In this document: one piece after another, positions 3,218 to 15,506 of the stretch
How positions within the stretch are numbered: position 1 is the first letter of the stretch
How the letters are laid out: every line of letters starts with the position of its first letter
Source: a virus
Taxonomy: Duplodnaviria > Heunggongvirae > Uroviricota > Caudoviricetes
Virus record (IMG/VR): IMGVR_UViG_2917860307_000001
Location: 1 to 44,753 of that record
Reading direction: 5' to 3' (one strand)
DNA length: 44,753 bases
Notes under the pieces: model-generated
Seen by the model: only the letters and a program-made list of their open reading frames with translations
Told to the model about the DNA's origin: nothing
The model's database searches: none
Made by a program: the position numbers and the translations under genes

Positions 3218-3345
3218 TTCGTTCTCCACTTTATATGCGCTGCACCGCGCTGAATTTTGGTAAAAGGAAGCCCTCACCATCCGGCGATTATTGAGTAAAT
3301 TATGTTTCCATAAATGCCCCCGCAGGGGCATTTGCAGTAATGAAA

Positions 3346-4235: not shown

Positions 4236-4598
4236 TTAACGACCTGCTGCGCGGAGTTTTCCGTCAGGCTCACCGGCAAGAGTCAGTAATTGTCCTTGGT
4301 CTTCCTGCAGAATAGTCAGGCGACCACCGCGATTGACATACATCGGCGTTTCGGTGGTGTCTTCTTCGGAAATTTTCCCGCGGTTAGTCGGGCGAACATA
4401 TGAGAGTTTGTGTTTGATTTTCACACGGTTCTCATCAAACGGTTCGATTTCCAGGTTGAGTGAGACCTTACCTTTGGTTTTCGTGTTCATCACACCGGAA
4501 GCGACTTCACTGAGAACTGCGCCGATTTTGGTTTCAAATACGCCGCCGTCCAGCTCCCCGATAAATGCCTGCACATCAGTACTGCGTTCGCTAGCCAT
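4236..4598 (-). CDS. YfdP-like hypothetical protein
   Basis: Start at MASERSTDVQ (ATG 4598, GAGGAG RBS) gives 120 aa; first gene of the leftward early operon. Confidence 0.5.
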   Translation of the reverse strand: MASERSTDVQAFIGELDGGVFETKIGAVLSEVASGVMNTKTKGKVSLNLEIEPFDENRVKIKHKLSYVRPTNRGKISEEDTTETPMYVNRGGRLTILQEDQGQLLTLAGEPDGKLRAAGR

Positions 4599-4646
4599 TT
4601 TGCTGCTCCTCATCATATCGACCCTGCAAGGTCGGTTAGTTTCTCC

Positions 4647-4746
4647 ACAAAACAGAGAAGAACACCTGCGGTGACAGCCGCCCGGATGGATTGGGTTATG
4701 AGCCCGTCGTCCGGTGATGCTCTTCTCTGTTTTGTAAAAAGAGCGG
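4647..4746 (-). promoter_or_regulatory. Early-left leader element: boxA-like CGCTCTTTTTA followed by an 18-bp-stem hairpin (arms 4647-4664 and 4718-4735)
   Basis: Read on the minus strand: GGTACCGCTCTTTTTAC then a 17/18 complementary inverted repeat enclosing about 53 nt, ending about 50 nt upstream of the first early-left gene. Confidence 0.3.
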
Positions 4747-5230
4747 TACCAGCCGGAAGCAAGTGTACAAACTGGTACCGCCAAAGCAGTGGCTGTTGTG
4801 GCGGGATTGTCACTCAGGCGTATGGTCAGCCTGACAATCCGGTGTCCTCAACGGGGAAAGAGTAACCCCGCCATACTTACCGCCGCGCCATTTCGCGGAT
4901 TACCACAACGCTGAGAGCACTTAGCCAGTTACGGCACCACACTTTGTCGCGGCTCCATAAATGCTCTTATCGTTGCACCCTGGTCTCTTCCCAGGCGTCA
5001 AACCGAATCGCCACGCTGGTTAGGCGTCTTATCAGCATCATCATTGACTTGCACATTCCGGCTACCTGGTTTGTTTGCCCGAGCAAGGAGTGGATTGTCC
5101 CCTTTAACGTCCCCAGACCGCTAACGACGCATGTGCCATACGCCGTGTTACAACCAAATTTTGTTTGAATCTTGCCTGTTGCATGTTTCTTTTGGATACA
5201 TTATGTATCTCAAAGGTACATTGTCAAGTA

Positions 5231-5254
5231 TAAAAAAACCTGCCGAAGCAGGTT
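5231..5254 (-). terminator. Rho-independent terminator downstream of cI
   Basis: Hairpin AACCTGC-CGAA-GCAGGTT followed by a T-run on the minus strand, 13 nt past the cI stop. Confidence 0.55.
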
Positions 5255-5266
5255 CATAAATATTGA

Positions 5267-5941
5267 TTAGGCCTTTATTTTGTATCTTCTTGGTTTTCCC
5301 GAGAAAATCACTGTACCAATTATAGAGCAATTACCGTTGATCTTAATGTAAGGTTCAGGCCAGTTTGGGTTTAATGCTTTGAGGTAACGCTGTGTTCCAT
5401 CTTCTATCAACCGCTTGAAGGTGGTTTCGCCTGTATCGTGCATCAATGCAATAACGTCGTCACCGTGGCAGGCAGGGACTTCAGGATCAACAAAAATCAT
5501 GTCTCCCGGGCGGTACTCATCAATCATTGAATCACCAATCACCCGCAAGATATAAGTCATTTCGCCACAGGGTACAGGGCAGGGATAAGTTTCTGCTGTG
5601 CTCAAATCAACCTCAGAATAGCCAACTTCTTTCCATGCTCCGGCCTGTACCCATGATATGACAGGGACTAACGTTATTTGTTTGTTAGTGATTGAAACAT
5701 CAGGTTTTTTTGTGATGTTCGTTGTCTGGTGTTCTTGATCAAGCCATCCGACAGGCAGGTCGAAACATTTTTCGATGTGCCGTGCCATGCTGTCACCGAT
5801 ATTTTTAGTTGCACCATCTCCCATAAACCTGCTGGTCTGGGTTGGCTCGCGATCAATCATGGTGGCAAAGGAAGAATTCCCGCCAACACCATCTCTCAGT
5901 TTTCTGGCGTTAGACCGCCGGATGTCATGGACTGTTTTCAT
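5267..5941 (-). CDS. cI: CI-like repressor (HTH plus S24 LexA-like peptidase domain)
   Basis: 224 aa; N-terminal HTH region, C-terminal GDSM...catalytic-type motif; divergent from cro-like gene. Confidence 0.8.
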   Translation of the reverse strand: MKTVHDIRRSNARKLRDGVGGNSSFATMIDREPTQTSRFMGDGATKNIGDSMARHIEKCFDLPVGWLDQEHQTTNITKKPDVSITNKQITLVPVISWVQAGAWKEVGYSEVDLSTAETYPCPVPCGEMTYILRVIGDSMIDEYRPGDMIFVDPEVPACHGDDVIALMHDTGETTFKRLIEDGTQRYLKALNPNWPEPYIKINGNCSIIGTVIFSGKPRRYKIKA

Positions 5942-6263: not shown

Positions 6264-6827
6264 ATGAGGCTAACCGTGGGTAAGCATCACTGGAAAGTAG
6301 AAAAACAGCCTGAGTGGTACGTGAAAGCTGTCAGAAAAACTATCGCGGCGTTGCCGGGGGGGTACGCTGAAGCTGCTGAGTGGCTGGATGTAACAGAGAA
6401 CGCTTTATTCAACCGCCTTCGTGCAGATGGCGATCAGATTTTCCCGCTGGGATGGGCAATGATTTTACAGCGCGCGGCTGGCACTCACTACATTGCGGAT
6501 GCTGTCGCACAGTCTGCTGGTGGGGTGTTTGTATCGCTTCCTGAAATTGAGGAAGTGGAGAACGCCGATATAAACCAGCGCCTGCTGGAAGTCATCGAAC
6601 AGATCGGGAGTTACTCAAAGCAGATTCGTTCGGCAATCGAAGATGGGGTAGTGGAGCCACACGAGCAGACAGCAATTAATGATGAGTTGTATCTGTCAAT
6701 TTCGAAGCTCCAGGAGCATGCAGCACTGGTCTACAAAATCTTTTGCGCTCCAGAAAAGAGTGACGCCCGCGAGTGTGCAGCTCCGGGCGTCGTGGCGTTT
6801 TGTGTCTGTGGAGAAACTAACGCATGA
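6264..6827 (+). CDS. CII-like / YdaT-family regulatory protein
   Basis: 187-aa ORF immediately after cro; family call tentative. Confidence 0.45.
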   Translation: MRLTVGKHHWKVEKQPEWYVKAVRKTIAALPGGYAEAAEWLDVTENALFNRLRADGDQIFPLGWAMILQRAAGTHYIADAVAQSAGGVFVSLPEIEEVENADINQRLLEVIEQIGSYSKQIRSAIEDGVVEPHEQTAINDELYLSISKLQEHAALVYKIFCAPEKSDARECAAPGVVAFCVCGETNA

Positions 6828-7660
6828 ACAGTTTAACGGCAAATAACCGTTTGTCGCAACAGCAGGTGGTCAGCGTCGCTGAACACCTGTTGTTACGGCA
6901 TGAATGCAGATTACCAAATCACCTGGCTGTAAGTAACCACAGAGAACTTTACCTGACTGTGGGGGGCGAGTTGTGCAGGAACTTAACCGCTGGTTTCGTG
7001 ACGGAAGAGGGCTTTATGTCCATGTTATTCGTTGGGAGCCAGAAACACAGCGCGTTATCTATCTTCGCAAAGACTACCCGCATGAGTGTTTTAGTCCTTT
7101 GTGGAAATTCAGGCGTGATTTTGTTGAGTGTGAAGGACCACCAGCACATTGATTCTGCCATTCCGGGACGTTACACTGTTCAGGCACCTTATAAAGCGGG
7201 TGCCGGGATTGGCGTCCTGGAAATGTTATCGGCGATATATGACGCGCCAGCGTCTTTTTTATCGTCTGCGTCTGCGCACACCCAAATTATGGTGGGCTGG
7301 ACGGGGGCACCGAAAGGTGCGCCGGTTTCCGATAACGCCGGTTACGCCAACCCCGTTCAGTTCACCACCAGCGAAATTGGCGTTTCCGGTGGTGAAGGTA
7401 ATTCACTGTTATCGGAGGCTGCCATCATGGCTACTGTCCCAGCCCTCTCTCGTCTGAATGATGAAGACTTACATAAACTCAGTTATGTAACAACTGCACT
7501 ACGTGCTCTGCGCAAGGTAACTCTTTCGGATCCGCAGGCGCATCAGGTTCTGGTAGAAACCCTTCTTAACTTGCAGGCTGAACGTATTCGTCTGGCGGAT
7601 AAGGCTAATTTTCATATTCACCGTCTCCTGAATATCAGCGGAGGGCATCGTCATGCTTAA
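6824..7660 (+). CDS. Hypothetical protein (possibly YdaU-like); frame integrity uncertain
   Basis: 278-aa ORF; a protein-like 59-codon alternative-frame ORF (6973-7152) begins at a G6 run at 6961-6966. Confidence 0.35.
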   Translation: MNSLTANNRLSQQQVVSVAEHLLLRHECRLPNHLAVSNHRELYLTVGGELCRNLTAGFVTEEGFMSMLFVGSQKHSALSIFAKTTRMSVLVLCGNSGVILLSVKDHQHIDSAIPGRYTVQAPYKAGAGIGVLEMLSAIYDAPASFLSSASAHTQIMVGWTGAPKGAPVSDNAGYANPVQFTTSEIGVSGGEGNSLLSEAAIMATVPALSRLNDEDLHKLSYVTTALRALRKVTLSDPQAHQVLVETLLNLQAERIRLADKANFHIHRLLNISGGHRHA

Positions 7661-15482: not shown

Positions 15483-15506
15483 GGCCACGTCAGGTGGCCT
15501 TTTTAT
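15483..15506 (+). terminator. Rho-independent terminator
   Basis: GGCCAC-GTCAG-GTGGCC hairpin followed by T5. Confidence 0.55.

Follow-up and report, generated by a model that had tools for sequence, protein, structure and literature searches.

The window analysed here, the 44,753-nucleotide virus record IMGVR_UViG_2917860307_000001, is a lambdoid prophage whose nearest relatives are cdtI, 2H10, Ayreon, Stx2c phages, mEp460, and SfV (88-98% identity over the interval from cI to yfdP); it is an N-less lambdoid prophage of the SfV/cdtI/e14 type. From the cI stop (5267) to the start of yfdP (4598), the first gene of the early-left operon, there is a gap of 668 bp, in which the leftward transcript carries a structured RNA of 99 nt. 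This RNA, here called element B, is a new RNA family. It begins in the U-tract of a terminator-like hairpin (T), is followed by a conserved tail and a small hairpin (h), and has a second stem, P2, the tip of which is identical to part of the initiator tRNA anticodon arm. The genes and features of this interval needed here, all on the minus strand, are listed below.

5941-5267, minus: LexA/S24-type cI repressor gene
5255-5236, minus: cI terminator
5227-5200, minus: PL-like promoter (TTGACA, 16 nt, CATAAT), directly 3′ of the cI terminator, with 11/12 matches in a promoter scan
4736-4782, minus: T, an intrinsic-terminator-like hairpin recognized by inverted repeat and fold, which includes CGCTCTTTTTA
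4642-4740, minus: element B, a 99-nt three-way-junction RNA recognized by fold, covariation, RNAalifold, and covariance model
4740-4716 with 4666-4642, minus: stem P1 of B, 25 bp including G·U (RNAfold), its 5′ arm beginning in the U-tract of T
4714-4682, minus: stem P2 of B
4705-4693, minus: tip of P2, GGG-CUCAUAA-CCC (GGGCUCAUAACCC), the E. coli tRNA-fMet anticodon stem-loop, positions 29-41
4681-4668, minus: stem P3 of B
4635-4648, minus: tail GUGGAGAAACUAAC, of which GGAGA pairs with the U-tract at the base of P1 and AACUAAC is a single-stranded linker
4619-4634, minus: h, the GC hairpin CGACC-UUGCA-GGGUCG between B and the ribosome-binding site
4598 (ATG) to 4236 (stop), minus: yfdP (phrog_204), with the Shine-Dalgarno sequence GAGGAG at 4611-4606

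Structure, conservation, and distribution of element B

In a preliminary description of the region, made without database searches, a BoxA-like motif and a long hairpin had been pointed out in the early-left leader. Both are there in the letters of the sequence. On the minus strand, the string CGCTCTTTTTA occupies 4745-4735, and the inverted repeat 4718-4735/4647-4664 is complementary at 17 of 18 positions and encloses 53 nt. From the end of the hairpin to the yfdP ATG (4598) there are 48 nt, where about 50 nt had been given, and the bases that follow the hairpin are GUGGAGAAACUAAC, so that there is indeed no U-tract behind it. The suggestion of a structured leader RNA on the leftward transcript is borne out, the RNA being cis-encoded and conserved. 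Folding and covariance analysis across related prophages, which had been proposed as a check, found the structure to be conserved, with compensatory changes in other genera.

A repeat search extends the inverted repeat of B to arms of 25 nt with an 84% match, and RNAfold gives the element -51.2 kcal/mol (z = -6.95; 0/200 shuffles as stable). Relatives were taken from the yfdP loci of other species, from 80 viral contigs, and from contigs retrieved by the hairpin core. The same plan, made up of a long P1 whose 5′ arm starts from the U-tract and whose 3′ arm runs to GUGGAGAA(A)CUAAC, of P2, and of a variable P3 (14 to approximately 40 nt), is shared by Mangrovibacter, Enterobacter, Atlantibacter, Leclercia, Kosakonia, Phytobacter, Superficieibacter, Scandinavium, Pseudocitrobacter, and E. 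coli. Among 24 diverse sequences, 93.4% of the pair cells are standard, against 33-53% when the partners are slid by 1-3 columns, and 12 of the 32 pairs have changed on both sides; none of 500 shuffles reached the observed pairing values. RNAalifold independently gives P1, P2, P3, and the pairing of the U-tract with GGAGA, and the U:A and U:G pairs between tail and U-tract are found in all 24 sequences. The U30·G108 wobble is kept in 19 of the 24, with further G·U pairs elsewhere. On the opposite strand such wobbles would turn into A·C mismatches, which marks the leftward RNA as the functional molecule. The covariance model built from B (R1) finds a single copy in the window, with 113 bits on the minus strand versus 42 bits on the plus strand, and scores all long-form relatives at 75-116 bits.

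The tail is conserved in Escherichia, Mangrovibacter, Enterobacter, Kosakonia, Phytobacter, and Providencia. Between the tail of B and the start codon there are 40-47 nt in yfdP and rdgC leaders, and h is always in between; it is kept with differing stems (GGCGG/CCGCC, GCGCC/GGCGU, GCCCC/GGGGC) and with loops that are mostly (U/G)GCAG-like. GC hairpins with (G/U)UGCAG-type loops recur just 5′ of the ribosome-binding sites of yfdP, rdgC, and yfdR-like genes. One of these, GCGCGGUGCAGCGC at 3237-3250 (minus) before the yfdR-like gene, is labelled a terminator in phage Ayreon, and P3 of B often bears the same UUGCAG loop. Hairpins with UGCAG-type loops may be a shared protein-binding or processing signal. 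Kissing of P3 with h through UGCA loops was rejected, as the two loops are not regularly found together. A pairing between the CUCAU loop and the Shine-Dalgarno sequence (UGAGG) 3′ of it was also rejected as a conserved interaction; many copies have the complement, and several do not (CAGAGGG, CAAAGGG, CGAGAGG).

No family of Rfam 15 matches over 4599-5192 at the gathering score, and there is no meaningful match at E<=10 in 4400-5400. In 20 related loci, Rfam likewise gives no match in the leader, its only matches being C4 and isrK, which belong to the PR operon, and true tRNAs elsewhere. Full-text literature searches turned up no description of the element.

The tip of P2 was compared with the E. 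coli tRNA-fMet sequence (CGCGGGGUGGAGCAGCCUGGUAGCUCGUCGGGCUCAUAACCCGAAGAUCG...; PMC8887418) and with the metY gene, and its 13 nt match exactly. Over a wider stretch of P2, CG-N-CGGGCUCAUAACCC-N-A, the match is 17/19. By a rough post hoc estimate, an exact match of one of approximately 40 anticodon arms to a given hairpin of 3 bp and 7 nt has a chance of about 4e-5. The most conserved sequence of B, GACGG(G)CUCAUAACCCAAUCC, includes this region, and contigs of various prophages repeat the core GGCUCAU[AU][AC]CCCAAUC. All 24 sequences have CUCAU and two of the three G-C pairs unchanged; at loop positions 37/38 there is variation (AA, UC, UA), and five sequences lack the outermost G-C pair. In relatives from Providencia, P1 and the tail are kept around a different interior with no tRNA-like core, and the decayed copy in e14 has UUAAUAA instead of CUCAUAA. 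As for a complete cloverleaf, ARAGORN with default settings finds 0 genes in the window and Rfam has no tRNA match at E<=10 in 4400-5400. Calls made by ARAGORN in relaxed or mitochondrial mode were discarded, being many and non-specific.

Copies of B with at least 95% identity are found in 2,490 of 5,426 complete E. coli genomes (3,319 copies, 1-5 per genome), and all copies inspected lie in prophage leaders. An RNA structure of approximately 100 nt is thus present in nearly half of complete E. coli genomes, as well as in prophages of other Enterobacterales, and has gone unannotated or been mislabelled as a small protein. The E. coli copies are annotated as nothing or as 'hypothetical protein', and in e14 of strain K-12 the copy directly 5′ of xisE-intE is annotated as ymfH. 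This ymfH (L116, 2502-2813) overlaps A (a structured RNA upstream of T, described below), T, and B, and is probably not protein-coding.

The first gene after B may be yfdP, rdgC, a yfdR-like HD-domain gene, xisE, a holin gene, or others, therefore B is not tied to one protein. The end of the T-run is at a fixed distance from the B core in 200 of 218 copies, a highly redundant set. There is also a short form, with a P1 of 6-8 bp and the same P2 core, which comes directly after a terminator and 5′ of holin genes. In L226, for example, the order is Q (PF03589), terminators, short B, and a lambda-S holin gene (PF05106), and a long copy precedes rdgC in the same sequence. The short forms at L226 12006-12060, L153 1917-1971, and L119 104-187 lie exactly between the terminator and the holin ribosome-binding-site hairpin CAGCACCCGC...GCGAGGTG. 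The late leader of the window itself (plus strand) has a terminator at 15483-15499 (GGCCACGTCAGGTGGCC-TTTTT) and then approximately 45 nt to the start of a phage-21-type holin gene (region to 15545), with no B.

The terminator-like hairpin and the upstream leader

The preliminary description had read CGCTCTTTTTA as a possible BoxA, and thus the leader as a possible nut-like site. This likeness to boxA is coincidental, the string being the 3′ half of the stem and the U-tract of T. In T, GGCGGTACCAG (4782-4772) pairs with CTGGTACCGC (4752-4743) around a loop of 19 nt, and the U-tract is at 4740-4736; within CGCTCTTTTTA, CGC is the end of the stem and TCTTTTT the U-tract. On the transcribed strand there is therefore a GC-rich hairpin followed directly by UUUUU, as in an intrinsic terminator. 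In 97 distinct relatives a hairpin abuts the T-run (T4-8), and its stem sequences are many and varied, with at least 12 unrelated ones (GGCGGTACCAG, GCGGCGTC, GCGGCACC, TGCCCATC, CTGGCGG, GTCGGCGTC, GCCTCGGC, and others); in some relatives T is a canonical terminator with an 8-bp stem and a loop of 4-5 nt. The CGCTC part is replaced by CGTCC, CGCAA, CGCCC, GCACC, and others, and co-varies with the 5′ strand of the hairpin. In place of the whole motif, relatives have CGTCCTTTTT, CGCAATTTTTT, CGCCCTTTTT, or GCACCTTTTTT, and both CCGCTCTTTTT and CCGTCCTTTTT are frequent within E. coli. As the hairpin and T-run are kept and CGCTC is not, it is the shape of a terminator that is conserved, not a boxA. 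A boxA must be single-stranded, and the bases of CGCTCTTTTTA are paired in the predicted folds, both from the single sequence and from RNAalifold.

Two other readings of T were rejected: the likeness of GGCGGTA to the RfaH ops element, which is not conserved in stems that vary freely, and a promoter in the loop (GATAAT), for which the spacing to a -35-like sequence is inconsistent and the motif is lacking in the E. coli form. In L006, L016, L022, L025, L028-L030, L148, and L180, the loop of T contains a nested stem with the asymmetric motif GA(A/U)GAUAAUGUUCUG. This motif occurs in several genera, and the E. coli form is without it.

Operator-like repeats (5183-5222) surround the PL-like promoter, and the promoter segment (query positions 1-61) is kept as a block in many related prophages. 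From the position of this promoter and the start of yfdP, the leftward untranslated leader is approximately 590 nt long; as a whole it has an unusually stable fold (-228 kcal/mol, z = -5.2). Upstream of T it contains two further modules.

4903-5146, minus: module L2, non-coding, aligned with Phytobacter prophages and with a segment 5′ of a phage tRNA-Arg gene
4795-4909, minus: element A, a structured RNA closed by a 7-bp acceptor-like stem (UUGUGGU/GCCACAA)

The order of the leader is therefore PL, L2, the tRNA-like A, T, B, h, and the Shine-Dalgarno sequence. L2 is conserved in Phytobacter and Kosakonia prophages, with the invariant blocks CCAGGUAGCCGGAAUGUGCAAGUC and GGCGAU..GGUGUGAC, and its hairpins keep their pairing through compensatory changes (CCUGG/CCAGG to CCUCG/CGAGG). 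None of the small ORFs within L2 has a PHROG match. A homologue (L117, 2501-2745) lies directly 5′ of a tRNA-Arg(UCU) gene in an unrelated region of another E. coli prophage, and L2 may serve phage tRNA genes as a conserved leader RNA or as a promoter unit.

Element A occupies the site at which Phytobacter prophages carry a real tRNA gene (L018, 2222-2300; found by ARAGORN, Rfam tRNA 52.8 bits), immediately 5′ of T and B, and the two share the 5′ flank GUGCUCU..CGUUGUGG. A itself gives no tRNA call by ARAGORN and no Rfam match, and SfV and e14 carry a variant of it with a different interior. To judge from its site, flank, and closing stem, A looks like a tRNA-derived RNA, and the leader formed by L2, A, and B appears to be a composite of tRNA-related modules. 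The tRNAs in the leaders of Phytobacter ursingii prophages (L018, 2222-2300, and L023, 1186-1264) have the anticodon loop CUAAUAA (AAU), which is unusual for bacteria. Taken with the UUAAUAA found in the e14 copy of B at the place of CUCAUAA, both look like a change of C34 to A in CAU.

Possible functions of the leader RNA

The reading preferred here, by analogy with known leaders and with a probability of roughly 0.35, is that B is an RNA-level module of read-through transcripts, in which an RNase III-type processing or stability helix is joined to a separate tRNA-like recognition arm. Most transcripts from PL, carrying the tRNA-like leader RNA (L2 and A), would end at T. On those that read through, B would fold and take the U-tract into the 25-bp duplex. 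RNase III of E. coli is suited by near-uninterrupted duplexes of approximately 20 bp or more, and P1 is near-perfect over 25 bp here and 20-27 bp long in long-form relatives, usually with one conserved mismatch. P1 may thus be an RNase III-type determinant of processing or stability. Processing would separate an upstream small RNA from the early-left mRNA, and the remaining mRNA would start approximately 45 nt before the start codon with h at its head. The P2 arm would form a module of its own, recognized by a factor that reads anticodon arms of the initiator or CAU type.

Several observations weigh against this. The 19-nt loop of T in the window is atypical of efficient terminators, and T was missed by the consensus scan. 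The short members have a P1 of 6-8 bp, too short for RNase III, therefore RNase III processing cannot be the function of the whole family. The best-conserved sequence is the tRNA-like core of P2, and a simple processing site would not account for this. B is also optional, since there are yfdP leaders with T and without B (L016/L017) and one with the GUGGAGAAC tail and without B (L008), a pattern as compatible with an accessory 'payload' RNA as with a cis-regulator. Finally, the copy in L214 follows a promoter, with no terminator.

The layout itself has counterparts. In metY-rimP-nusA, rpsO-pnp, and lambda tI/sib, a small RNA or tRNA is followed by a terminator, by a long hairpin present only on read-through transcripts, and by the downstream genes. 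This order matches that of T and B, and the Phytobacter prophages have a real tRNA before T. The short members of the B family, without a long duplex, and the tRNA-fMet-like arm have no counterpart there, and homology of the metY-rimP leader to B was dismissed, as no sequence similarity was found. The PL leader of lambda is similar in lying between PL/cI and the first early-left gene, in having a linear motif and then a large hairpin that ends a few tens of nucleotides before the ribosome-binding site, and in its long duplex compatible with RNase III, the lambda hairpin being an RNase III-sensitive one upstream of N. It differs in that the window has no boxA conservation, no boxB, and no N; the 'motif' is the tail of a terminator, and the hairpin has the form of a three-way junction, one arm of which is tRNA-like. 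Nearest in the literature are the operon-embedded Pas sRNAs that end at terminators 5′ of holin genes. Such phage sRNAs (lambda 6S/StxS from PR′, PasA/PasC) end at intrinsic terminators directly 5′ of the holin gene or at the head of the operon (bioRxiv 10.64898/2026.05.13.724894). T could end an upstream leader RNA in the same way, with no Rfam sRNA family matching the leader; B is downstream of the terminator and so is not the terminated sRNA. Judged by the literature searched, the terminator-abutting layout and the copy of the initiator tRNA anticodon arm appear to be unprecedented for a structured, cis-encoded phage leader RNA.

The chief rival, a different weighting of the same parts that is tentative but deserves attention, makes the P2 arm the essential one, as a mimic of the initiator CAU arm that would bind something which normally reads this arm, with P1 only a scaffold. 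Three consecutive G-C pairs are the hallmark of initiator tRNA and are read by the P site and by IF3; VapC of Shigella and Salmonella cleaves tRNA-fMet in the anticodon loop; and in the E. coli thrS mRNA a mimic of an anticodon arm serves as the operator. The partners proposed are accordingly the 30S P site with IF3 (control in cis of initiation approximately 100 nt downstream), MetRS or another enzyme for the CAU anticodon, or a tRNA-fMet nuclease such as the VapC-type PIN toxins, for which the RNA would be decoy, inhibitor, or sensor. The site of B, after terminators and at the start of strongly expressed operons, would then serve only to secure expression. In favour are the exact 13-nt match of GGGCUCAUAACCC with its invariant CUCAU and two G-C pairs, the same core in the variants with a short P1, the tRNA-related modules of the rest of the leader, and the behaviour of B as an optional modular insert, like accessory genes; a possible GC-rich outlier beside tRNA-Gln may be added, but it was retrieved with the core pattern itself and has only 20.9 bits. 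Against it are the variable positions 37/38 and the G-C pair lost in 5/24, the Providencia relatives and e14 with their altered interiors, the minimal stem of 3 bp, the distance of B from the ribosome-binding site, with which it does not overlap, and the abundance of tRNA-fMet, with which a decoy must compete; no literature on such an element was found. The thrS operator is alike in being a 5′-leader hairpin that reproduces the anticodon stem-loop of a specific tRNA, and unlike in that B is not over the ribosome-binding site, has no link to an aminoacyl-tRNA synthetase gene, is phage-borne behind terminators, and has no cloverleaf. More doubtful is the extended form, in which the arm would be a functional mimic carried by temperate phages at the head of early-left and late operons, docking at the 30S P site/IF3 or bound by a tRNA-fMet enzyme or toxin, with A, L2, and B together replacing N-type control. 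If the mimicry were true, the phage would have either a new means of controlling translation initiation in cis on read-through transcripts or an RNA that acts as a decoy for, or inhibitor of, defence systems cleaving tRNA-fMet.

The remaining explanations are less probable than these and concern antitermination, mobile DNA, and coding. A put-like element, in which nascent B (or A/L2) RNA, not homologous to put, would bind its own RNA polymerase, make it resistant to pausing and termination, and replace N, is a minor possibility. It would suit the lack of an N-like gene from cI to the early-left operon in the window, SfV, mEp460, Stx2a_1447, and Ayreon, the position of B near the start of long operons, the copies in two operons of L226, the copy of L214 directly after a promoter, as with putL, and a long untranslated leader that should need protection from Rho. 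Like B, putL and putR of HK022 are cis-encoded, structured RNAs that look protein-independent, with two adjacent internal stem-loops at the start of an operon in a phage without N. The comparison with HK022 that the preliminary description had proposed nevertheless finds no likeness in sequence or structure, in either direction: a covariance model built from HK022 putL and putR (R2), which scores 99 and 90 bits on HK022, has no match at E<=10 in the leader of the window, nor in 18 loci related to it, and R1 has no match in HK022 (Rfam, too, has no match in the HK022 immunity region, hence no put model there). B furthermore lies after, not before, the only obvious terminator. It has a single copy in the window and none in the PR operon, against copies at both early promoters of HK022, and phages with a second copy have it in a late operon, where Q is already at hand. 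A simple scan, which misses large-loop hairpins and missed T too, picks up no strong terminator inside the early-left operon before 1067-1040; there is thus no obvious need for a processive antiterminator. Still less can be said for a classical nut site, in which CGCTCTTTTTA would be boxA, joined to a boxB-like hairpin and read by Nus factors with an N-like protein; this is very improbable. The string resembles boxA CGCUCUU(U)A, and h (5 bp, 5-nt loop) comes 8 nt after the conserved tail, but the boxA-like 5′ half varies with the terminator stem and is paired in the predicted RNA, and where a boxB hairpin of approximately 15 nt with a GNRA-like pentaloop would be expected the three-way junction of 99 nt is found. 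Nor does h have GNRA-like loops (UUGCA, UGGCA, UGAUG). On neither strand of 4599-5266 did a comparison of all ORFs and mini-ORFs with PHROGs give an N or antiterminator match, in agreement with the earlier view that no N gene is evident; the mini-ORFs match no PHROG, and the ORFs overlapping the hairpin match only families of unknown function; the leader has no arginine-rich ORF, and the first genes after it vary without any being N-like.

Improbable, although less so than the nut site, is a selfish or neutral palindromic insert, resembling miniature inverted-repeat elements such as Correia or ERIC, or else a DNA-level recombination boundary, without RNA function. Long terminal inverted repeats surround a short core, the element is present or absent at the same site (in L008, ...UUUUAU is joined to GUGGAGAAC without the insert), mosaic junctions occur at the edge of B (L034), and an E. 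coli genome may have up to five copies. Correia hairpins are RNase III substrates, and Correia and ERIC elements are comparable to B as inserts of approximately 100 nt with long inverted ends that are co-transcribed with genes. Unlike them, B in the copies inspected is not dispersed but confined to homologous positions in prophage leaders, and these copies show no evidence of transposition; its arms change by compensatory substitution and keep G·U wobbles that would be A·C mismatches in the other strand or DNA; its core is conserved more than the arms, and short-P1 relatives have no long repeats. Hardly probable at all is that the segment encodes a protein, as a 66-aa ORF (4613-4813, minus), a 64-aa ORF (4671-4865, plus), or 'ymfH' in e14. 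PGAP and other pipelines do call a 'hypothetical protein' or YmfH, and the ORFs match PHROG families of unknown function, but there are such 'families' on both strands of the B segment (phrog_33599 and phrog_3651), the changes in P3 length are not multiples of three (14 to approximately 40 nt), the substitutions are those of compensatory base-pairing, and many genomes leave the segment unannotated. A conserved mini-ORF from the GUG of the tail was rejected, as it is not maintained in other genera. For annotation, the boxA string becomes a terminator and the ymfH-type ORFs an RNA, and a covariance model is supplied for the new family. The early-left operon of a large group of N-less lambdoid phages has B at its start, and the way in which they control early-left transcription is not explained by the paradigms of lambda and HK022.

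Other features of the window

The genes 3′ of yfdP in the early-left operon are DUF2303/yfdQ and then the yfdR-like gene. A 12-bp palindrome at 1040-1067, which is terminator-like, strong, and bidirectional (both strands), parts the end of this operon (ORF 1079-1378, minus) from the convergent ORF 497-1045. In the PR operon, on the plus strand, Rfam isrK (7184-7260, 63.7 bits) and the C4 antisense RNA (7285-7372, 82.8 bits) lie in tandem, both within a 278-aa ORF (6824-7660) that is labelled an 'immunity region' protein in phage records. The same pair is found in SfV-type, mEp460, and Stx2a_1447 loci. This suggests an RNA immunity module like that of P1/P7 or Gifsy, and that ORF 6824-7660 is at least partly an RNA locus.

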